Source: Patescibacteria group bacterium (GTDB lineage Bacteria > Patescibacteriota > Patescibacteriia > UBA10025 > JAHIVO01). From it: DNA of 64,000 nucleotides. Numbering within the stretch: the stretch's first letter is position 1; the number at the start of each line of letters is the position of its first letter. Made by a program: the position numbers and the translations under genes. This document shows positions 2,777 to 63,008 of the stretch, piece after piece. The notes under the pieces were generated by a model. That model was given only the letters and a program-made list of their open reading frames with translations. It did no database searches and was not told the origin of the DNA. Location of the stretch: positions 519,006-583,005 of the forward strand of contig JAQULM010000001.1 in the NCBI GenBank assembly GCA_028718605.1, written 5' to 3'.

Positions 2777-3434
2777 AAAAGACTTCATTGAATTCCTCGC
2801 AACGACCGGTGCGCTCAAGTTCGGCGAATTTACCCTGAAGAGCGGCAGGAAATCACCCTACTTCTTCACAACGGGCAATTTCAATGCCGGCGAGACAATC
2901 TATCGCCTTGGCTACTTCTACGCCGCCGCCGTCAAGGGCGACGAGAAAAAATTCGATATCATTTTCGGGCCAGCATATAAAGGGATTCCGCTCGCTGTGT
3001 CAACGTCTATCGCTCTTGCGAAAAAATTCAAAATCGACAAAGGATATCTTTTTGACCGGAAAGAAACGAAAGAGTACGGCGACAAGAGCGCGTTCGTCGG
3101 CTGCGAGCCGCGGGGGAATGAAAAAATCCTCCTGATCGATGACGTCATGACGACCGGCAAAACCAAGGAGGACGCGGTTGAAAAACTGCGAGCGAGCTTC
3201 CCCCATATCACGATTACAGGCCTCGTCATCGCCCTGAACCGTGAGGAAACTGACGCGGACGGCAATGACGCACTGAAAGAATTTGAAAAAAAATACAGCA
3301 TCCCCGTCACTTCAATCATCACGATCCATGACGTACTTAAGCACCTGCATAATAAAACAATAGACGGAAAAATCTACCTTGATGACGTCATGAAGGAAAA
3401 TATCGAGCGTTATCTAAAAGATTACGGAGTCTAA
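2763..3434 (+). CDS. pyrE: orotate phosphoribosyltransferase
   Basis: FGEFTLKSGRKSPYFF and LIDDVMTTGKT (PRPP-binding) motifs. Start chosen at ATG 2763, which has an AAGGAAA RBS 7 nt upstream and overlaps the pyrC stop. Confidence 0.75.
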   Translation: MKKYKKDFIEFLATTGALKFGEFTLKSGRKSPYFFTTGNFNAGETIYRLGYFYAAAVKGDEKKFDIIFGPAYKGIPLAVSTSIALAKKFKIDKGYLFDRKETKEYGDKSAFVGCEPRGNEKILLIDDVMTTGKTKEDAVEKLRASFPHITITGLVIALNREETDADGNDALKEFEKKYSIPVTSIITIHDVLKHLHNKTIDGKIYLDDVMKENIERYLKDYGV

Positions 3435-3444
3435 CGCACCACCT

Positions 3445-4266
3445 ATGGACGCTAGGACGACCCAATCGTATACAGAACGCGCCAAGCAAGCAACCAACCC
3501 GGTTGCGAAGCAGCTTTTCGAACTGATGGAACAGAAAAAAACGAACCTCTGCCTCGCGAACGACGAATCTGATGTTGAAAAATTCCTCGGCCATATCGAA
3601 CAGCTGGGCGAATACCTCGCGGTTTTAAAAATGCACGTGGACATCCTGGAAAACTTCACCCCGGGCGTGATTGTAAAAATCCGCTCGCTCGCGAAAAAAC
3701 ACAACTTCCTTATTTTCGAGGACCGGAAATTCGCCGACATCGGCAATACCGTATCAATGCAGTACGAAAAAGGTGTATATAAAATTGCCGAGTGGGCGCA
3801 CCTCACCAATTGCCATGTAATCCCCGGCCCTGGCATTATTGAGGGCTTAAAAACTGTTGCGGACAAGCAAACAGAACCGCGCGGCCTGATACTCCTTGCC
3901 CAGATGAGTTCAAAAGGCAATCTCGCCACTGACGAATACACCGCACAAGCCGTAACAATGGCTGAACACTACCCTGGTTTTATTGTCGGATTTATTGGTA
4001 ACGGCGGTAAAGTGAAGGAGCTAAAAAAACTGTCCGCTATCGCCTCACCTCAATTTATTATTCTAACGCCGGGCGTGAACCTGACATCAACGGGAGATAA
4101 GCTCGGCCAGCAATACACGACACCTGCGGATGTCATCGCCGCCGGCGCTGACGTGATAATCGTCGGCCGCGGCATCTACAGCGCATCCGACCCTATCAAA
4201 GCAGCGGAACAGTACCGTGCCGCCGGCTGGGAAGCATACTTAAAAAGAATAACCAATGCCCAATAA
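3445..4266 (+). CDS. pyrF: orotidine 5'-phosphate decarboxylase (long form)
   Basis: 273 aa, OMPDC-like (…LCLANDESD…FEDRKFADIGNTV…). Confidence 0.8.
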   Translation: MDARTTQSYTERAKQATNPVAKQLFELMEQKKTNLCLANDESDVEKFLGHIEQLGEYLAVLKMHVDILENFTPGVIVKIRSLAKKHNFLIFEDRKFADIGNTVSMQYEKGVYKIAEWAHLTNCHVIPGPGIIEGLKTVADKQTEPRGLILLAQMSSKGNLATDEYTAQAVTMAEHYPGFIVGFIGNGGKVKELKKLSAIASPQFIILTPGVNLTSTGDKLGQQYTTPADVIAAGADVIIVGRGIYSASDPIKAAEQYRAAGWEAYLKRITNAQ

Positions 4267-4374: not shown

Positions 4375-5310
4375 ATGAAACACTGCCTCCACCTCAAAGA
4401 CTGGCAAGCCGACGAAATACGCGCTGTTATCGAGCGCGCGATGGAGATTAAAAAAAACCCTGCTGAGCACGGCGACGTACTGAAAAACAAGACGCTCATC
4501 ATGCTGTTCCAAAAGGGATCAACGCGCACCCGGCTCTCGTTTGAAGCGGGAATGACGCAGCTCGGCGGGCATGGTATCTTCATTGACCAAAAAACAACGC
4601 AGTTCTCGTTGACTGATTTCCGGGACGAGATACGGGCAGTGATGCGGTTCGGCGATGTCCTGATGTTCCGCGCTTTAAAAGCCGCGGACGTGCTCACCGC
4701 AGCCTCGTTCAACCAGATACCGGTCATCGACGCGTGCTCAGAAAAGTACCACCCCTGCCAGGCATTGGGCGACCTCCTGACAATGGCTGAGCATTCAGGC
4801 GGATTAGATAAAATTAAAAAAGTCGTCTGGCTCGGCATTGAAAATAACGTTTCAAACACGCTGAAACTCGCATGCGCTAAGCTCGGGATTGACGTATGGA
4901 TCGCCGCGCCAAAAGCGCACCAACCGAGCATTGATCCAGAATTGAACAAGATGGCTGATGCCACGGGTAAAGTTCATACAACGCTCGACCTCAAAGAGGC
5001 AATGGAGGGTGCGGACTACGTGCATACCGACACCTGGGTCGATATGGAATTCTTCGACAATGGCAAGGTAAAGCCGAGCTTCCAGGAAGAGTTTGACGCG
5101 CGGGTCGCGATGTTCAAGCCGTACCAGCTCAACGCCGCCCTGCTCGAAAAGCACAATCCCAACGCGAAAATCATGCACTGCATGCCCTGCCATATCGGCT
5201 ATGAAATAACGTCCGATGCTATCAACCACCCGAATTCAGTCATCTTCGACCAGGCAGAGAACCGGATGCACATCCAAAAAGCGATCATCTTGCATCTGCT
5301 CGGGAAATAA
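4375..5310 (+). CDS. carbamoyltransferase of the ATCase/OTCase family with ornithine-carbamoyltransferase-like motifs
   Basis: STRTR carbamoyl-phosphate motif, HPCQALGDL, DTWVDM, HCMPCH (OTC-like HCLP), and an OTCase-type C-terminal tail FDQAENRMHIQKAI. It sits where pyrB would be expected. Confidence 0.7.
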   Translation: MKHCLHLKDWQADEIRAVIERAMEIKKNPAEHGDVLKNKTLIMLFQKGSTRTRLSFEAGMTQLGGHGIFIDQKTTQFSLTDFRDEIRAVMRFGDVLMFRALKAADVLTAASFNQIPVIDACSEKYHPCQALGDLLTMAEHSGGLDKIKKVVWLGIENNVSNTLKLACAKLGIDVWIAAPKAHQPSIDPELNKMADATGKVHTTLDLKEAMEGADYVHTDTWVDMEFFDNGKVKPSFQEEFDARVAMFKPYQLNAALLEKHNPNAKIMHCMPCHIGYEITSDAINHPNSVIFDQAENRMHIQKAIILHLLGK

Positions 5311-5668
5311 TATCCACGCTCCCTATCCTGCAAAATACTCGAAAATGATTAAGCACCAAAAAGGTTTTTAGAATCGCGGGGTCCAGGGGCTTCTTAATCA
5401 AAATTCCTTCTTCCCCGCCCATATAAAAAATATTGCTGAAATTGAGCGAGGAGGAATGGTCCGCCCTTTGGGCGAGACCGCGGTGTCCTGTTCGAGCGTA
5501 CGAGCGTGCCCATGGGCACGCGAGAAGCGAGTTACACCGCGGAATGACGACGAGCCAATTTCAGACAATTTTTTATCCTGGGCGGAATCTCTTTTCTGTC
5601 ACTTTTCTTGATTCGAAGAAAAGTGACAAAGCTACTCTTGGCGCCAAGAAAAGTGGCAATATAATCAC

Positions 5669-5735
5669 TTTTGACCAGGCTGAAAACCGGATGCACATCC
5701 AGAAGTCAATTATCCTGCAGCTGCTCGGGAAATAG
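5669..5735 (+). repeat. direct repeat copy 2 of the last ~66 nt of the carbamoyltransferase gene (native copy 5243-5310)
   Basis: TTTGACCAGGCTGAAAACCGGATGCACATCCAGAAGTCAATTATCCTGCAGCTGCTCGGGAAATAG compared with the native TTCGACCAGGCAGAGAACCGGATGCACATCCAAAAAGCGATCATCTTGCATCTGCTCGGGAAATAA. Ends in a stop codon and encodes …FDQAENRMHIQKSIILQLLGK. Confidence 0.8.
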
Positions 5736-6451: not shown

Positions 6452-6454
6452 CGT

Positions 6455-6520
6455 TTCGACCAGGCAGAGAACCGGATGCATATTCAAAAAGCGATCATCC
6501 TCCATCTACTCGGAACGTAG
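6455..6520 (+). repeat. direct repeat copy 3 of the carbamoyltransferase 3' end
   Basis: TTCGACCAGGCAGAGAACCGGATGCATATTCAAAAAGCGATCATCCTCCATCTACTCGGAACGTAG, ending in a stop codon. Confidence 0.8.
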
Positions 6521-12979: not shown

Positions 12980-13700
12980 GGTTTTAAAAATTCTGCAAAT
13001 GCCGTAGGCATTTTGCCGAGGTAGCTCCCCGTCATTCGACGGGGCAGGCAGTGGTAGAGTCCCGTATTTATGCCGAGGAATAATATGCCGAGGTAGCTCA
13101 GTGGTAGAGCGAAGGACTGAAAATCCTTGCGTCGCCAGTCCGATTCTGGCCCTCGGCATAAATACGGGATAAACTCCGGACTGAAAATGCCGATTTTCTC
13201 TGCGAGCCATGCGAGCAGACAGAAAATCGAGCATCCCGAGTGCAACGAGGGATCTTCTCCTTGCGTCGCCAGTCCGATTCTGGCCCTCGGCATCTGCGGA
13301 GATTTTTTTAAAGTCGAGGTAGCGAAGTGGGCCGAGACCACGAGTGAAGCAAACTGCTTCGCTTCACGAGGAGTCGAGGCGGGCGAGACGATGCGGGAAC
13401 CACCGTCGAGCCCCGGAAGAGCGAAGGACTGAAAATGCCGATTTTCTCTGCGAGCCATGCGAGCAGACAGAAAATCGAGCATCCCGAGTGCAACGAGGGA
13501 TCTCGTCGCCAGGGAGCTTGCCCTGAGCGAAGCCGAAGGGATTCTTGAAATCAATAGTTCAACCAAATGGTGAAATCCGCCGCAGCTTCGCGAAGGCGGA
13601 TGGCCCTCGGCATCTTCGTGGGATAAACTCCGGACTAAAAAAATAACAAGCGTGAAACATTGGTGAATGCGACGCACGCTTGAAAAAACACCCCAAAAAT
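12980..13700 (+). repeat. mosaic of tRNA-Phe fragments and duplicated inserts surrounding one intact tRNA-Phe
   Basis: A 5' fragment GCCGAGGTAGCTC…AGTGGTAGAG split by a 22-nt hairpin insert (13015-13076). A 3' half copy TCCTTGCGTCGCCAGTCCGATTCTGGCCCTCGGCA (13258-13292). TGGCCCTCGGCA again at ~13611. An identical 78-nt repeat GGACTGAAAATGCCGATTTTCTCTGCGAGCCATGCGAGCAGACAGAAAATCGAGCATCCCGAGTGCAACGAGGGATCT at 13178-13255 and 13426-13503. GGGATAAACTCCGGACT repeated after the tRNA copies. Confidence 0.6.
13087..13158 (+). tRNA. tRNA-Phe (anticodon GAA); unusual C at position 55 of the T-loop (TCCGATT); no encoded CCA
   Basis: GCCGAGGTAGCTCAGTGGTAGAGCGAAGGACTGAAAATCCTTGCGTCGCCAGTCCGATTCTGGCCCTCGGCA. 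Acceptor, D, anticodon and T stems all pair. Confidence 0.7.
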
Positions 13701-18541: not shown

Positions 18542-18614
18542 GGCGGGTATCGTATAACGGTATTACCACAGCTTTCCAAGCTGTTGACAGGGGTTCGACT
18601 CCCCTTACCCGCTT
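18542..18614 (+). tRNA. tRNA-Gly (anticodon TCC)
   Basis: GGCGGGTATCGTATAACGGTATTACCACAGCTTTCCAAGCTGTTGACAGGGGTTCGACTCCCCTTACCCGCTT. 3-bp D-stem; canonical GGTTCGA T-arm. Confidence 0.75.
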
Positions 18615-18813
18615 GTAAGTAACACATTACATCATTTGGCAGACACTCCTGAGTAGGTAAGCCACCGCAACAGGAGTCGAACGGTCACGAGCGATACGAG
18701 GCGCAGCCGAAGGGGAGCGACAAACAATGCGACCAGAAGGAGCATTGTTTGGTGACCAGGACAACGAGGACGCCCGAGGGCGGACGAGGCGAAACTCCCC
18801 TTACCCGCTTGTA
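18615..18813 (+). repeat. tRNA-3'-end-tagged structured element, copy G1
   Basis: Contains CAACAGGAGTCGAACGGTCAC…CAAACAATGC-gaccagaagga-GCATTGTTTG…GTGACCAGGAC… and ends with ACTCCCCTTACCCGCTTGTA, a copy of the tRNA-Gly T-loop to 3' end plus 5 flank nt. Confidence 0.7.
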
Positions 18814-18969
18814 GACCAGTCGTTGGCAAAATTTCTCAATAATTAAATCAGTACAACAGGAGTCGAAGGGCAGCAGAGAGACAAGCGCTCGGCGCGAAGA
18901 CGAACGCCGATGGATGCGACTCAAAGGAGCATTCATCGCTGCCCAGGACGCGACTCCCCTTACCCGCTC
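18814..18969 (+). repeat. tRNA-3'-end-tagged structured element, copy G2 (tandem to G1)
   Basis: CAACAGGAGTCGAAGGGCAG…CGATGGATGC-gactcaaagga-GCATTCATCG-CTGCCCAGGACGCGACTCCCCTTACCCGCT. Confidence 0.7.
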
Positions 18970-20724: not shown

Positions 20725-21663
20725 TCATTTAATTTCTTTAAGGAATTGCGCTGCGAGGGTAACTGTATCAACAGAGGAACTGTAGAAATCCTTCCACACA
20801 ACGACTATATTAGCGTCATTGAACACGGCCCGCTGCACCTCGCGTATCGTATCACCACCAGCAACGGCGACGGTGATATTATAACTCCCTCGGATCTGCT
20901 TGATCTGATAATACGGGATTTGTTTTTCTTTCGAGAACTCGGTCTCGTCGACGCCACGGTGCAAAACCACAACATCCGGAAGCGCCCTGAGCTGGCGAAG
21001 GAGCATATGCGGGCTTTCTACATTCATCATGTCGACCATTGAATCAAGCCCGTGCTGCTTGCATGCCGCGATAAACCGGTCGATTGTTTCTACGCGCGCG
21101 ACCCCAAGGCACGTAATCCCGTTCGCGCCTGCCGTTGCGGCCATTTCAACCTCCCGCTCTGCCAGATCAGCCGTTTTTGCATCGGCGACAACGTACGCAC
21201 CCGGCCAGGCCATCGCACGGACAGTGCGGATTGCCTCAGCTCCGTATATTTTTATCAGCGGTGTGCCCGCCTCGAGGATGATCCGGTCGGATGGCGGAAG
21301 ACGGCTTATAATCGAGCGCGCATCATCGAGCGTGCTATTGAGCGCAATTTGCAAATACTGCTTGCTTTTCTGTAGTTTTGCGGTGGGAACTGGCACAAGC
21401 GGCATTTGCGCTGTTTTCTGGGACAGCGAACTGAACGCCAGTGCAATCGGCGTCTTTAGGGGCGTTGCTGCCGGTTGTGTGCTTGTTGGTGCGCCTTTCG
21501 GGGCATGGCGTGCTTGCTGAGAAATTTTTTCGAGGAATTGCAGGAGGGGTGATCCGGCCGGTGCTCCTTTCTTTTTCCGGAATATCATCCGCACTATAAA
21601 AAAGAAGATTGCAAAGTTAAAAATCGTCGTAAATACCTCAAAAACTTTAATAGGAGAAGCCAT
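20725..21663 (-). CDS. 3-hexulose-6-phosphate synthase-like (OMPDC/KGPDC-family) protein with an N-terminal TM helix and ~90-aa linker (alternative start ~21405)
   Basis: C-terminal domain KQYLQIALN…ILEAGTPLI…VVADAKTADLA…GANGITCLGVA matches the HPS/KGPDC ribulose-phosphate-binding barrel. Confidence 0.55.
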   Translation of the reverse strand: MASPIKVFEVFTTIFNFAIFFFIVRMIFRKKKGAPAGSPLLQFLEKISQQARHAPKGAPTSTQPAATPLKTPIALAFSSLSQKTAQMPLVPVPTAKLQKSKQYLQIALNSTLDDARSIISRLPPSDRIILEAGTPLIKIYGAEAIRTVRAMAWPGAYVVADAKTADLAEREVEMAATAGANGITCLGVARVETIDRFIAACKQHGLDSMVDMMNVESPHMLLRQLRALPDVVVLHRGVDETEFSKEKQIPYYQIKQIRGSYNITVAVAGGDTIREVQRAVFNDANIVVVWKDFYSSSVDTVTLAAQFLKEIK

Positions 21664-21666
21664 GGC

Positions 21667-22473
21667 TTAGATGACAACCTTTAAAAAACTCTCTGCAAGC
21701 TCCGCCATCTTGTGGGGCTCCTCATAGAATGGGCGCCACACAATGGCGATGTCGGCATCATTGAACACCGTACTCGTTACCTCGCGGAATGTTTCGCATC
21801 CAGCCACTGAAATCGTGACTGGATACGTCCCCTTGATCCGGCGTATCATGTGCAGCGGGATGCTGCGCTCACGGTTCAGATCATGCTCATCAACTCCGCG
21901 GTGAAGCACGACAATATCCGGAAGCGGGCGAAGCTTCTGCAGCACCTCAAACGGAAATTCGACATTCATCATGTCAACCGTTGAATCGATGCCTGCTGCC
22001 GCGCAGTGCTTGATGAATTCACTAATGGTTTCGATGGGCGCCAAACCAAGGCAGGTCGCGGCTGAAGCACCTGCCGCTGCTGCCGCCGCGACTTCTGTAT
22101 ATCCCCGATCCATGCATTTCAGGTCTGCAACGACGTACCCGGGCCTGCCAAGCTTCGCGGACCAACACTGGTACACCATCCCAATTCCGCTGCTGCCGTA
22201 CACCTTTACGAAAGGTGTGCCGACTTCAATAATTATCCTATCCGATGGGGGCAGGGATGCTATCATCTGCCGTACCTCCGGAAGGGAGCGATTCAAGGCT
22301 ATCTGGAGATAACATTTTCGCTTTTCAAGTCGCATAAAGAAGTATTTTGACAACTGCCCATTAGCATACCTGTAGTATACCCAATTCGCCTCAGGGCGAA
22401 CAGGTAACCCGTAAACGCGCGTTTTTGTCCCGATTTCGTCCTTCGATAATACCCGAATCCTAAAGGTTGACAT
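21667..22473 (-). CDS. 3-hexulose-6-phosphate synthase-like protein, tandem paralog
   Basis: KCYLQIALN…IIEVGTPFV…VVADLKCMD…GASAATCLGLA. Same family as 20725..21663, with a ~50-aa N-terminal extension. Confidence 0.55.
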   Translation of the reverse strand: MSTFRIRVLSKDEIGTKTRVYGLPVRPEANWVYYRYANGQLSKYFFMRLEKRKCYLQIALNRSLPEVRQMIASLPPSDRIIIEVGTPFVKVYGSSGIGMVYQCWSAKLGRPGYVVADLKCMDRGYTEVAAAAAAGASAATCLGLAPIETISEFIKHCAAAGIDSTVDMMNVEFPFEVLQKLRPLPDIVVLHRGVDEHDLNRERSIPLHMIRRIKGTYPVTISVAGCETFREVTSTVFNDADIAIVWRPFYEEPHKMAELAESFLKVVI

Positions 22474-50385: not shown

Positions 50386-51294
50386 ATGGCTGCACCACTA
50401 CAACAATCACTCGACGGCTTCCTTGGGCGCCTGTCGCAAGAAAACAGCGTCGGAAATGCGACCATCCGCAACTACCGTTTCTACCTGTCACGATTTTTAA
50501 CTTGGCGGGCGTTTCCTGAACCGTCAGCGATCACTGGCGAAGCAATCGATGAATTCCGGCACTACCTTGCGGGGATCCGGAACCAACGCGGTGAACTGAT
50601 GAAACAGACAACGCAGAATTACCACCTGATCGCGCTCCGTGCATTCCTCGACTACCTCAATGCCCAGGGCATGGCAGTGCCCCGAGGCCATGACGTCAAG
50701 CTGAACCGCATTGAACAGCGGCACCAAGTAACGATTACCGACACAGATCTCGAACGCTTGCTGGAAGCGCCGCTGAATATGAAAAACCCCGGCATCGTCC
50801 AAAAGCGGGACAAAGCCCTCCTCGAACTGCTCTTCAGCACAGGATTGAAAGTATCAGAACTCTCGAACCTGCGCCGCGACCACGCACGATTGGAAGAAGA
50901 CGAGATGCCGATCCGCGGCACCGGAAGCAGAATGCGGTCAGTGCCGTTCACCCACCATGCGAAATTCTGGATCAAGGAATACCTCGATGTGCGTACCGAT
51001 GCGCTCCCGGCGCTTTTTATCCGCCATGATCGCGCGAAACGCCAGCAGCTCACGAGCGTACAGCCGGATGAATACAAACTGACGCCCCGGACGATCCAGC
51101 GCATTGTAAAAAAATACGCGGCATCATCCGGCCTCCCGCGCTCTACAACCCCTGAATCGCTCCGGCAAGCGTTCGCGTCATTCCTCCTGCGGCGCGGCGA
51201 CGATATCGAAACGGTGCAAAAAACACTCGGCCACGTTTCGCTGACGACGACGAAACTGTACGCAAAATCCCACGCCTCGCCCCCCGTGGATTGA
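50386..51294 (+). CDS. tyrosine site-specific recombinase (XerC/XerD / phage-integrase family)
   Basis: N-terminal SAM-like core-binding domain. C-terminal catalytic residues R…HxxR…Y (…RHDRAKR…LGHVSLTTTKLYAKS). Immediately upstream of tRNA-Arg. Confidence 0.75.
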   Translation: MAAPLQQSLDGFLGRLSQENSVGNATIRNYRFYLSRFLTWRAFPEPSAITGEAIDEFRHYLAGIRNQRGELMKQTTQNYHLIALRAFLDYLNAQGMAVPRGHDVKLNRIEQRHQVTITDTDLERLLEAPLNMKNPGIVQKRDKALLELLFSTGLKVSELSNLRRDHARLEEDEMPIRGTGSRMRSVPFTHHAKFWIKEYLDVRTDALPALFIRHDRAKRQQLTSVQPDEYKLTPRTIQRIVKKYAASSGLPRSTTPESLRQAFASFLLRRGDDIETVQKTLGHVSLTTTKLYAKSHASPPVD

Positions 51295-52736: not shown

Positions 52737-52812
52737 GCGCGCATAGCTCAGCTGGTAGAGCAGTTGCCTCTTAAGCAAACGGTCGGGGGTTCGAATCCCT
52801 CTGCGCGCACCA
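52737..52812 (+). tRNA. tRNA-Lys (anticodon CTT), CCA encoded
   Basis: GCGCGCATAGCTCAGCTGGTAGAGCAGTTGCCTCTTAAGCAAACGGTCGGGGGTTCGAATCCCTCTGCGCGCACCA. Confidence 0.85.
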
Positions 52813-52984
52813 CAAAGGCCTCCTCACACAGAGGAGGTTTTTGCGTAGCAGCCATGCCGCTCAACACGCACGGATTCGAAGGGCAGGAGTGAATCAAGCG
52901 TGGAACGCGCAGATGAACGACAACGGATGCGACCCTTCGGGAGCATTCGTTGCTGCCCAGGACCCGAATCCCTCTGCGCGCACC
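52813..52984 (+). repeat. tRNA-3'-end-tagged structured element, copy K1 (same family as G1/G2)
   Basis: …GGATTCGAAGGGCAGG…CAACGGATGC-gacccttcggga-GCATTCGTTG-CTGCCCAGGACCCGAATCCCTCTGCGCGCACCA. The last 21 nt copy the tRNA-Lys 3' end. The terminator hairpin is also duplicated (52816-52843 and 52987-53012). Confidence 0.7.
52816..52843 (+). terminator. rho-independent terminator after tRNA-Lys
   Basis: GGCCTCCTC-acaca-GAGGAGG + TTTTT. Confidence 0.5.
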
Positions 52985-53083
52985 ACAAAGGCCTCCTCAC
53001 ACAGAGGAAGTTTTTGCAGTGTTCTATAGGAACAATCTGAGGAATGGAGTGTTTTTGTTGTAGAAAAACGCTATACTATCTAT

Positions 53084-62180: not shown

Positions 62181-62263
62181 GCCCAGGTGGTGGAATTGGT
62201 ATACACACTAGGTTGAGGGCCTAGGCTCATTTGAGCGTGCGGGTTCAACTCCCGCCCTGGGCA
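62181..62263 (+). tRNA. tRNA-Leu (anticodon GAG), long variable arm, no encoded CCA
   Basis: GCCCAGGTGGTGGAATTGGTATACACACTAGGTTGAGGGCCTAGGCTCATTTGAGCGTGCGGGTTCAACTCCCGCCCTGGGCA. Confidence 0.8.
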
Positions 62264-62446
62264 TTACACGATGACGCTTCTTTCAAAACTTACAGCCTGA
62301 TTTATTTCCCAAGGATTGGTAAATCGTTGCGGGAGTTGAAGCTGACCCGAACGCGCCGACAGGCGATGAAGTGAGGGCAGCGGGCTGCGGAGGAGAGCAA
62401 GGAGCGCTGCGACGGGCTCGGGGGAGCAGAACTCCCGCCCTGGGCA
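62264..62446 (+). repeat. tRNA-3'-end-tagged structured element, copy L1 (family 2)
   Basis: …GCGGGAGTTGAAGCTGACCCGAACGCGCCGACAGGCGATGAAGTGAGGGCAGCGGGCTGCGGAGGAG…GCAGAACTCCCGCCCTGGGCA. The 5' arm GCGGGAGTTGAA is the exact antisense of the tRNA-Leu TTCAACTCCCGC. The last 17 nt copy the tRNA 3' end. Confidence 0.7.
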
Positions 62447-62567: not shown

Positions 62568-62643
62568 GGTGGCCATAGCACAATGGTTAGTGCACAGGTC
62601 TGTGGCACCTGTGATATGGGTTCAATTCCCATTGGCCACCCCA
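62568..62643 (+). tRNA. tRNA-His (anticodon GTG) with G-1, CCA encoded
   Basis: G-GTGGCCATAGCACAATGGTTAGTGCACAGGTCTGTGGCACCTGTGATATGGGTTCAATTCCCATTGGCCACCCCA. Confidence 0.85.
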
Positions 62644-62813
62644 GAACAGGCTAGCTAGTACATAGGTAGTCTGTTTTGGGACGAAAGCGTCTACAATCCA
62701 AGAGAATTGAAGCCGACCCGAACGCGCCGACAGGCGATGAAGTGAGGGCGGCCGGCTCCGGAGGAGCGAAGTGAAAACGACGCGGGGGAGGAGAATTCCC
62801 ATTGGCCACCCCA
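62644..62813 (+). repeat. tRNA-3'-end-tagged structured element, copy H1 (family 2)
   Basis: …GAGAATTGAAGCCGACCCGAACGCGCCGACAGGCGATGAAGTGAGGGCGGCCGGCTCCGGAGGAGCG…GAGAATTCCCATTGGCCACCCCA. The 5' arm GAATTGAA is antisense to the tRNA-His TTCAATTC. The last 20 nt copy the tRNA 3' end including CCA. Confidence 0.7.
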
Positions 62814-63008
62814 GAAAAAGTTGCGGCACCCGTTTAGGGTGGCGGAACTTTTTCTGATAGGGATAAAAAAATGCGGATGTCATCTGCTCTTCAAAGGGTA
62901 CGCGCACCAGTGAGGAATACTGGCTGCATACGGCCCTTGAGGAAACAGACTTCATCCGCAGTTGCTGTTCGGTTCAATACAGGTTAGGTTCCCAGACTAA
63001 TAAACTGC

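Follow-up and report, generated by a model that had tools for sequence, protein, structure and literature searches.

Gene-free hairpin units behind tRNA genes of Patescibacteria: candidate non-autonomous mobile elements with target-antisense arms

Site-specific insertion into tRNA genes and attachment (att) sites that take the form of hairpins are both known among integrative elements, and Williams reportedly distinguished, in 2002, T-loop and anticodon-loop sublocations for such elements within tRNA genes. Here we analyze a stretch of 64,000 nucleotides from a Patescibacteria group bacterium (contig JAQULM010000001.1, positions 519,006 to 583,005 of the forward strand; hereafter the window), in which five small elements lie behind tRNA genes. 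What is new in these elements is that a gene-free unit of 110–230 bp carries an att-like copy of the tRNA 3' end which, paired with an arm antisense to the target, makes up the base of a conserved hairpin with covarying stems. A preliminary description made from the sequence alone knew of no comparable element, and neither Rfam nor the literature yielded one: with Rfam 15, only the tRNAs and a 16S rRNA reach the gathering score in the window, and the elements searched in slices of 250–700 nt give only noise at E ≤ 10. The nearest paper describes a different element, namely group I introns at position 35/36 (anticodon loop) of Patescibacteria tRNAs (PMC13011429). Our preferred reading, to which we assign a probability of about 40%, takes these units for small mobile elements that are non-coding and non-autonomous. 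They would insert by recombination within the segment of the tRNA gene between the T-loop and the 3' end, and an enzyme encoded elsewhere would recombine them as a folded single strand.

ARAGORN recognizes 11 tRNA genes in the window, all of which are confirmed by Rfam together with one bacterial 16S rRNA. The tRNA positions agree with those initially given, and all five copies, G1 and G2 (in tandem behind tRNA-Gly), K1 (tRNA-Lys), L1 (tRNA-Leu) and H1 (tRNA-His), are present where they had been placed. In each, an arm antisense to the T-loop and to the 3' strand of the T-stem of the adjacent tRNA is followed by a structured core and then by the tRNA sequence repeated directly from position 56–58 onward; as had been noticed, the sequence of each arm, about 100 nt upstream of the copy, is that of the T-loop plus the first bases of the T-stem in reverse complement. 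The repeats are far from what chance would provide, an exact 16-nt repeat within 200 nt of its source being expected at about 5e-8 per site. Nucleotides 18598–18613 of tRNA-Gly recur exactly at 18794–18809 and 18953–18968, with the first repeat running on for a further 4 nt (TGTA); those of tRNA-Leu (62247–62263) recur exactly at 62430–62446 and those of tRNA-His (62624–62646) exactly at 62794–62816. The tRNA-Lys repeat (52792–52844, duplicated at 52965–53017) extends over 53 nt at 98% identity and includes the CCA and the whole terminator hairpin. Across the family, the direct repeats are 16–57 nt long; their identity begins at positions 56–58, which is the inner end of the closing helix P1 (see below), and ends at position 73, often exactly at this discriminator, or up to about 30 nt past the CCA end. 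Loci fetched from other genomes (44 in all) bear labels such as L004; in L001, L007, L020, L025b and L044, the distal copies decay beyond P1 or have gained small hairpin insertions. Hence, of the copy length of 17–21 nt initially proposed, the 4-nt extension into the flank of G1 holds, whereas the figure does not fit the 53-nt tRNA-Lys copy with its CCA and terminator, and decay beyond the closing helix in L007, L020, L025b and L001 indicates that the full 17–21 nt are not what is conserved.

The preliminary description envisaged a single core of about 100 nt for all five copies. Instead, they fall into two unrelated families, one formed by G1, G2 and K1 (the G/K family; 67–74% pairwise identity) and the other by L1 and H1 (the L/H family; 80%), which have only the arm and the word GAAG/GAAC in common. 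The tRNA-linked copies keep a constant order: the tRNA comes first, frequently with a terminator-like hairpin and its T-run behind it, followed by a non-conserved spacer of 10–60 nt, the arm, the core and the tRNA copy. In the G/K family, the arm ends in CGAAC, CGAA or TGAA and is followed by the 6-bp helix P2 (GGGCAG/CTGCCC or variants), a one-sided bulge J of 18–57 nt, whose ends are conserved as RAGYGA ... GARCG and which may contain a hairpin, and the 10-bp helix P3, which is closed by the loop GAC-N5-GGA and succeeded by AGGAC. Next come either 2–3 nt or an optional hairpin ending in GCGG, and then the tRNA copy from position 56, 57 or 58. The arm and the copy form the helix P1, making the whole unit, which is non-coding and without open reading frames (ORFs), one long hairpin (P1-P2-P3). 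The stems quoted in the preliminary description were all found, including the GGTCAC/GTGACC and GGGCAG/CTGCCC versions of P2 and the 10-bp hairpins with a loop of the form GAC-N5/6-GGA. The junction nucleotides CGAAC, AGGAC and GCGG|A are also conserved, which is no proof of ribozyme activity.

These parts can be followed through the G/K copies of the window, all of which lie on the plus strand, as do the L/H copies. The target tRNA-Gly(TCC) gene spans 18542–18614, with its T-loop to 3' end at 18594–18613. It is followed by the 5' module of G1, a variable spacer not conserved among copies (18615–18672), the arm GGAGTCGAAC (18673–18682), antisense to tRNA positions 53–62, and the core (18683–18762), in which P2 is GGTCAC/GTGACC and P3, beyond the J bulge, is CAAACAATGC/GCATTGTTTG with the loop GACCAGAAGGA, and which, with its terminal AGGAC, scores 84.4 bits against R1, a covariance model built from 19 G/K copies. 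An optional linker hairpin (AACGAGG..CGAGGCGAA; 18763–18793), also seen in long-form copies of other genomes, leads to the distal copy of tRNA-Gly positions 58 to 73 plus TGTA (18794–18813), assigned as a sequence repeat. In the adjoining G2, the 5' spacer module (18814–18858) precedes the arm GGAGTCGAA (18859–18867), antisense to the T-arm, a core with P2 GGGCAG/CTGCCC, P3 CGATGGATGC/GCATTCATCG, AGGAC and a 3-nt linker (18868–18952; 84.8 bits to R1), and the distal copy of positions 58–73 (18953–18968), likewise a sequence repeat, beyond which the original flank resumes; the minimum free energy fold of G2 contains P1, P2 and P3 (z = -3.1). The tRNA-Lys(CTT) gene with its own terminator occupies 52737–52844, the proximal repeat being 52792–52844. 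The K1 spacer (52845–52871), arm GGATTCGAA (52872–52880) and core (P2 GGGCAG/CTGCCC, P3 CAACGGATGC/GCATTCGTTG, AGGAC; 52881–52964; 77.7 bits to R1) ensue, and the 53-nt distal copy (52965–53017; 98%) runs from C56 of tRNA-Lys through the CCA and terminator.

The L/H family resembles the G/K family in its arm and copy and differs in its interior, which consists of a 40-nt domain, where a CGCC/GGCG hairpin is combined with tandem GA/GA internal loops, followed by GGAGGAG, a variable hairpin and CGGGGGAG. It is this 40-nt domain, GCYGACCCGARCGCGCCGA.AGGCGAUGAAGYGAGGGCRGC, that is conserved; the small hairpin proposed earlier for L1 and H1 is not the supported structure. Behind its target, the tRNA-Leu(GAG) gene (62181–62263; ARAGORN and Rfam), L1 comprises a spacer (62264–62328) that is absent at the empty orthologous sites in L004, L019 and L025, the arm GCGGGAGTTGAAG (62329–62341), antisense to tRNA-Leu positions 54–65, the core with the 40-nt domain, GGAGGAG, variable hairpin and CGGGGGAG (62342–62429), and the distal copy of positions 57–73 (62430–62446), beyond which lies the ancestral flank. 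The tRNA-His gene (62569–62643; ARAGORN and Rfam) is followed by the 5' module of H1 (62644–62701), read from the sequence as a terminator-like hairpin CAGGCTA..TAGTCTG and then TTTT, the arm GAGAATTGAAG (62702–62712), the L/H-family core (62713–62793) and the distal copy of positions 57–76 plus GAA (62794–62816), after which comes the ancestral terminator (62830–62855).

In a further subtype, not linked to tRNAs (L002, L010, L013, L026), the arm is GGGGGTC..CGAC; its local pairing partner is a CCTCCCC upstream of it, and a GGAGGGGTC..GACCTCCCC hairpin comes next. This subtype sits among housekeeping genes such as rpsU and yqeY. Copies far from any tRNA are seen in L005, L025b, L026 and L010. 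An 18-nt mini-hairpin, CCTGCCTACCGGCAGG, occurs at varied positions in G/K copies, even inside the distal tRNA copy (L001, L007, L010, L011, L028; for example, L001:2170–2200, minus strand), and its stem has the sequence of P2 (GGCAG/CTGCC), each strand taking the place of the other. Helices broken by tandem GA/GA mismatches, with recurrent GCGAAGC and CCCTGAGCGAAGYCGAAGGG, are a common style of all insert families and of some tRNA 5' leaders (window elements, L003, L006, L026, L037, L040, L044).

The fold itself is maintained by compensatory change. Across 24 distinct G/K copies, 95% of the P2/P3 cells are paired and 11 of the 16 pairs show double changes, values reached in 0 of 500 column shuffles, in an alignment that was model-fitted and so favors the structure; a hand-condensed alignment gives the same result. 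As a control, sliding the partner strand by 1–3 columns reduces pairing to 22–48%. The L002 copies have wholly different P2/P3 sequences that are still paired. For P1, 20 copies of both families were registered by tRNA numbering: positions 58–61 are paired in every one of them (20/20), and the pair at position 59 occurs as AU (7), UA (7), CG (3) and GC (3). The earlier proposal of selection on a fold in a real repeated family is, thus, borne out by P2/P3 and P1 alike and by the shuffle control. Among the non-Watson-Crick cells, G-U/U-G pairs outnumber A-C pairs by 12 to 3, and hence the folding strand is the tRNA-sense strand; one position of P3 holds a conserved A-G mismatch (14/24). Several stretches of the core are conserved though unpaired (AGCGA..GAGCG, GAC..GGA and AGGAC). 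A double-stranded protein-binding site is not sufficient as an explanation.

The arm is specific to its own tRNA. In all 11 tRNA-linked G/K copies, its longest perfect antisense match (8–17 nt) is to the T-loop variant of the cognate tRNA, and against tRNAs with a differing T-loop the match shrinks to the 4–6 nt of the universal T-loop; the arm/T-loop pairs are all Watson-Crick. The arm of L020 is complementary over 17 nt to G53–C69 of tRNA-Gln and places an A opposite U64 of a G-U stem pair. Hence, the arm is the complement of the 3' T-stem strand, and the alternative that it is a sense copy of the 5' T-stem strand is ruled out. The preliminary description had let the arm pair with either the genuine tRNA or the downstream copy. 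Pairing with the copy is upheld by the P1 covariation, whereas the stretch of the arm for which only the genuine tRNA offers a partner (CGAAC, facing G53–G57) is nearly invariant on both sides, so that this second pairing, though possible, has no covariation of its own in its favor.

The family extends well beyond the window. The G/K core pattern occurs at six loci among 185,579 species genomes and at 28 loci in metagenomes, where 15 are true members and the others chance matches in coding DNA. The true members are all on Patescibacteria-type contigs, with named records including Kerfeldbacteria and ‘Patescibacteria group’; several of the contigs are third-party-annotation (TPA) metagenome-assembled genomes (MAGs) labeled Gammaproteobacteria, yet they are syntenic with the window. 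A covariance-model search for further copies, as had been suggested, was productive: R1 recovers 25 copies at 53–95 bits, among which L043, L044, L012 and two tandem units behind tRNA-Leu(CAG) in L002 lie beyond the reach of the pattern. Together, the pattern and the model add about 20 distinct copies to the G/K family, and two further copies of the L/H family came from synteny look-ups. Most copies are just downstream of the tRNA whose T-loop variant the arm matches. No members were detected in two scans of viral contigs or in phage and plasmid records searched with blastn. Four of the chance pattern matches, on non-Patescibacteria contigs (L016, L022, L027, L029), share a longer conserved word, TGCGACCAxCGGGAGCACCxCGCGAAGCCCAGGAC, beside a complementary segment, which constitutes an unrelated motif.

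Orthologous loci, fetched through homologs of rplS, which lies upstream of tRNA-Leu and tRNA-His, display these units as insertions that come and go. The 3' site of tRNA-His is empty in L038 and L041, carries an L/H element in the window, L039 and L044, and carries a G/K element of the GGGCAG type in L004 and L019 and of the GGTCAC type in L025 and L040. The G/K element at this site in L043 has an arm and copy matching another tRNA-His allele than the present neighboring gene, and L037 has other hairpins there along with a remnant of a window-type tRNA-His 3' end. The tRNA-Leu site is without L1 in L004, L019 and L025, and the flank after their tRNA-Leu corresponds to the window flank right of the distal copy, from which it follows that the distal copy and the downstream DNA are ancestral. 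Comparison of L004 with its empty site in L041 gives the extent of the insert: CCA, a terminator hairpin, the spacer, the arm, the core and tRNA positions 58–73. Therefore, the mobile unit brings its own tRNA 3' end and terminator. A simple target-site duplication by staggered cuts was rejected on the same comparison, since the terminator of L004, located ahead of the arm and behind the tRNA, has no counterpart in the distal copy or at the empty L041 site and is, thus, insert-borne. In L005, a G/K unit away from any tRNA has GCCACCCCA on both sides, and its junctions fit a crossover inside the repeat. The tandem G1 and G2 belong to different subfamilies, and the P2 and P3 stem sequences of G1 are identical to those of L025 copies, one of which is at tRNA-His; therefore, the cores move between tRNA species. 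The empty orthologous sites (L038, L041) and the different element types at the same tRNA-His site agree with the att-like, repeat-flanked insertions conceived at the outset. A look-up for strain polymorphism at the loci of the window itself gave only identical DNA from the same genome.

Several further observations were made at these loci. In L020 (9170–9330; also in L034), a G/K-type core lies upstream of tRNA-Gln, and to its left is a duplicate of the 5' part of the tRNA up to the D-loop (CGGGGATCGTCTAATGG), mirroring the usual arrangement. At L037:2943–3560 and L043:3084–3420, the tRNA-Leu/His segment has apparently been swapped for another allele, with remnant tRNA 3' ends (CGTCCGCACCA; TGGCCACCCCAGAAAAA) left behind, and a further hairpin family (GCCCCGTACA..TGTACGGGGT) is found at the junctions of these replaced segments. 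At L005:1100–1330, the element and a tRNA-His 3' end fragment follow a gene ending in a T9SS-type C-terminal sorting sequence, which is unexpected for Patescibacteria; this could reflect a chimeric contig, MAG contamination or a transfer to another phylum.

Duplicated gene ends around small inserts also occur at other loci of the window. The 3' end of an ornithine/aspartate carbamoyltransferase (OTCase) gene (4375–5310) is present in three diverged in-frame copies (5233–5309, 5658–5734 and 6454–6520) around two inserts, one of which contains a 145-nt hairpin rich in GA mismatches (5428–5572; fold z = -5.6) and the other a lipoprotein-like ORF of about 170 aa. This locus follows the same logic at a protein gene, with a duplicated gene 3' end around a small insert, and we count it in favor of the mobile-element reading. 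The tRNA-Phe region (13013–13640), which the preliminary description did not mention, is a nest of tRNA-Phe fragments and other structured inserts around the intact gene (13086–13159). Upstream are 5' fragments with a 21-nt hairpin in the D-loop; downstream, a 78-nt structured element (13178–13255) recurs with 100% identity at 13426–13503, and the 3' half of the tRNA is copied at 13258–13293. A pseudo-tRNA-Phe (~13320–13613), which shares its downstream flank with the real gene, is interrupted by inserts in the D-, anticodon and T-loops; the one in the D-loop (13330–13416) has a homolog in L006/L021, namely the core of the second tandem unit. Separately, adjacent paralogous genes of the OMP-decarboxylase family (20725–21663 and 21667–22473, minus strand) share about 60% DNA identity over 600 nt.

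The mobile-element reading may be cast as the following mechanism. The unit would consist of its own tRNA copy from T-loop to 3' end, often with a terminator-like hairpin and a variable spacer, the Watson-Crick arm and the conserved hairpin core. It would enter by Campbell-type recombination within the segment from T-loop to 3' end, leaving the gene with an intact 3' end and the original one, now displaced, behind the core as the direct repeat. The arm would then pair with that repeat on the tRNA-sense strand, placing the crossover region at the base of the long P1-P2-P3 hairpin, and the folded single strand would probably be the recombination substrate, comparable to the attC site of integrons or the attP hairpin of CTX phage. 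An enzyme encoded elsewhere would presumably act on this strand, the sole candidate seen being a Xer-like tyrosine recombinase. On a move to a new tRNA, the arm would have to be re-matched.

That candidate, at 50386–51294, is the only tyrosine recombinase recovered when about 38 window ORFs were scanned with Pfam and NCBIfam, which otherwise showed housekeeping genes. It lies beside a tRNA-Arg gene that has no element and is below all equivalog cut-offs (XerA/C/D, IntI; for TIGR02249, 82 bits against a cut-off of 265). The link to the elements suggested in the preliminary description is not supported: the gene is near a different tRNA only, and no recombinase is near the approximately 25 copies elsewhere. 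A partner encoded in cis was rejected: all-against-all clustering of 650 ORF segments from the 44 loci returned only syntenic housekeeping genes, and Pfam, NCBIfam and phmmer agree. Small LAGLIDADG-like (a faint Pfam hit) and GIY-YIG ORFs are found just upstream of element-bearing tRNAs in L004/L019/L041 (~2840–3580), L025/L040 (2951–3202) and L007 (440–760), with none at the window loci; these may be homing-endonuclease-like genes at the same hot spots.

A number of points weigh against the mobile-element reading. The scanned window ORFs include no TnpB, IscB, IS110, reverse transcriptase (RT) or other integrase, phmmer with the window Xer-like protein finds no homolog in the 44 loci, no recombinase gene adjoins any of the approximately 25 copies, and no circle or excised form of 110–230 bp was seen. 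Cutting in the T-loop by an element with a fixed tRNA 3' end does not explain the presence of one core subfamily at different tRNAs with matching arm and copy, and an extra retargeting step is needed. The copy at L020:9200–9294 precedes a tRNA instead of following it and borders on a 5' tRNA fragment, an arrangement for which we know of no classical precedent. Other traits have an RNA-like cast. A terminator between tRNA and element is missing for G1, G2, L1 and H1 and, therefore, these are expected to be co-transcribed with their tRNAs, which, for four of the five window copies, would be more in keeping with an RNA; a terminator precedes K1 and the majority of the copies found in other genomes. 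The conserved unpaired nucleotides of the core seem closer to an RNA than to an attC-type DNA site, and the GGAA tetraloops on the variable hairpins, the tandem GA motifs and the purine-rich sense strand are likewise suggestive of RNA.

These traits raise a serious, though rather unlikely, rival possibility, namely that the functional unit is an RNA made up of the arm, the core and the tRNA 3' segment. The arm would then be a guide, either group I-like or belonging to an RNA-directed recombinase or nuclease, and the RNA, or its ribonucleoprotein, would recognize the T-arm of the tRNA gene or transcript and capture or exchange the segment 3' of 56/57, with the DNA copies being secondary. Consistent with this, the arm is ordered as a P10-like part (pairing with 57–65) followed by a P1-like part (GAAC pairing with 53–56), with the copy starting exactly at the junction; the K1 and L039 copies run to the terminator end, as would a tRNA transcript, several others stop at discriminator position 73, as would a processed RNA, and retargeting through a change of guide would be natural. 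The lack of a terminator before G1, G2, L1 and H1, the conserved junction and loop nucleotides, the tandem GA motifs in helices and the GGAA tetraloops would fall into place too. Yet, no Rfam ribozyme, intron or guide RNA matches at E ≤ 10, the core is only about 80–100 nt with dispensable optional hairpins, the arm-copy pairing would mask a guide, and the copy decays beyond P1 in several members, leaving no conserved 3' guide. Furthermore, no sigma-70-like promoter precedes any arm in the window, and no RT, TnpB, IscB or IS110 gene occurs in the window or beside any copy. The most far-reaching form of this idea, which we deem unlikely, is a programmable mobile system free of protein genes: an RNA of about 100 nt (or its single-stranded DNA form) with a re-writable guide arm for the T-arm of the tRNA gene or transcript, which would effect exchange or capture 3' of 56/57 as a ribozyme or as the guide of an unrecognized recombinase and be re-templated for each target. 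An archaeal-type bulge-helix-bulge (BHB) intron and a hammerhead-like core were weighed on the sequence and set aside, as the helices run on unbroken through the junctions and the core motifs do not match.

It is improbable, in our view, that no dedicated enzyme is involved and that passenger hairpins spread among competent Patescibacteria by homologous recombination, the tRNA serving as the left arm and the distal copy as the right, with the antisense arm kept by quasi-palindrome template switching and the fold merely keeping the insert harmless in the tRNA precursor. The layout of tRNA, insert and second copy of 57–73 would suit a double crossover in recipients with the same tRNA, the allele replacements with remnants in L037 and L043 point to frequent recombination at tRNA-Leu/His, several unrelated hairpin families share the same hot spots, and the two identical tandem units in L002 resemble the outcome of unequal crossing-over. 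However, with its 17 nt, the right arm offers very little homology for RecA-dependent exchange, the first insertion at a new tRNA and the fixed copy start at 56–58 are left unexplained, and the strong conservation of the unpaired core across divergent hosts argues for a specific recognition function. Decidedly improbable is a host-beneficial cis-acting RNA of tRNA operons, such as a 3' trailer structure for processing, stabilization or insulation, whose arm modulates the folding or processing of the upstream tRNA. The elements do share the orientation of the tRNAs and are transcribed along with them, the leaders of tRNAs in these genomes are similarly purine-rich and contain GCGAAGC, and the fold is conserved; against this stand the patchy occupancy, with orthologous sites in close relatives empty or held by unrelated families, the tandem and truncated copies, the copies far from any tRNA (in the four loci noted above) and the position of K1 and many others after a terminator. 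Very improbable, lastly, is the notion of decayed scars of larger islands or prophages of which only the attP-proximal end is left, with no present function. Direct repeats of tRNA 3' ends are, to be sure, the classical attL/attR footprint, and the OTCase locus has tandem small islands, one carrying an ORF; but three helices are kept by covariation across approximately 25 copies in many genomes, the copies end cleanly with no island remnants, and there are no phage or plasmid matches.

If the mobile-element reading is true, these would be the smallest known site-specific integrative elements, comprising just an att site and a folding scaffold and depending on a recombinase whose gene lies elsewhere in genomes of about 1 Mb. 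Since the arm is always cognate while the same core occurs at many tRNAs, target specificity appears to be easily rewritten, which is what makes guide-based systems useful as tools. In Patescibacteria genomes, the inserts and left-over tRNA fragments also give rise to mis-annotated tRNAs and broken assemblies, and they mark hot spots of recombination and allele replacement.

Compared with known systems, each family that we considered departs from these elements in at least one defining feature. Derivatives of IS200/IS605 elements (PATEs) and the REP/RAYT system similarly feature short non-coding intergenic hairpins mobilized in trans as single strands, with a guide 5' of the hairpin that pairs with the cleavage or target sequence to either side. 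However, their guide pairing spans 4 nt as against 8–17 nt here and they produce no target duplication; no TnpA or RAYT gene and no Rfam or sequence match was seen for our elements. The omega RNA of TnpB/IscB, a scaffold followed (TnpB) or preceded (IscB) by a 16–20-nt guide drawn from the flanking DNA, differs as well: the ORFs scanned include no TnpB/IscB, the 3' copy decays beyond P1 (L007, L020, L025b, L001) and the arm masks the would-be guide. A TnpB-like 3' guide was, accordingly, rejected on account of the decaying distal copies and the lack of a nuclease gene. The bridge or seek RNA of IS110/IS1111 is akin in being a structured non-coding RNA with programmable segments complementary to both target strands and in its often hairpin-like targets; unlike the present elements, it has those segments in internal loops and not mutually paired, whereas here the target-matching parts form the P1 helix and the internal loops are conserved. 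It is also encoded beside a DEDD recombinase in an insertion sequence of 1.2–1.5 kb with 2-nt duplications, in contrast to repeats of 16–57 nt and no adjacent recombinase. Group I introns have a contiguous guide (P1/P10) that spans the junction in a tRNA loop, and the phylum is rich in them (PMC13011429). They differ in that the upstream tRNA here is already complete, the core is too small and without P3–P8, Intron_gpI (RF00028) gives no match and no G-U wobble marks the junction; the published introns are at 35/36 in the anticodon loop (PMC13011429).

The closest parallels come from two other quarters. Islands and prophages that insert in tRNA genes by tyrosine integrases, together with their CIME-type derivatives, share with the present elements a repeat from the T-loop to the tRNA 3' end or slightly past it, an intact gene with the original 3' end displaced, tandem accumulation at one tRNA, an insert that brings its own tRNA 3' end (L004 versus L041) and occupied versus empty orthologous sites (tRNA-His in L038 and L041; tRNA-Leu in L004, L019 and L025). 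The present elements are, by contrast, gene-free and 110–230 bp long, with no integrase inside or nearby in approximately 25 instances, and they differ from the classical attP in their conserved covarying hairpin, target-antisense arm and use of the same core at many tRNAs; we know of no classical attP with such a hairpin and arm. The integron attC and the CTX attP(+) of the integrative mobile elements exploiting Xer (IMEX) offer the other half of the comparison. In attC, the relation of variable and conserved parts is the reverse of that seen here, where the base helix is target-specific and variable and the interior is conserved in sequence. The attC boxes R''/R' (RYYYAAC/GTTRRRY) have only a partial counterpart, the arm ending in ATCGAAC (6/7 matches) with a 3' partner of the GCGGA/AGGAC type; no IntI or cassette ORFs were found, and the target is the tRNA T-arm instead of attI or dif. 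Nevertheless, attC and the CTX attP are, like our elements, imperfect palindromes of 60–140 nt that fold on one strand, and their recombination point is at a base helix next to an unpaired spacer, as it may be in the present elements; they, too, form arrays at one attachment site, and the recombinases involved (IntI, XerCD) are related to Xer. In the CTX attP, moreover, one arm is an inverted and the other a direct version of the chromosomal target, which is the very arm/copy logic of the elements described here; the two versions mimic the target by pairing, and one strand is exchanged by a Xer-family enzyme. Should the mobile-element reading hold, the folded-hairpin att strategy of integrons and CTX-type phages would have been re-invented for the T-arms of tRNAs.

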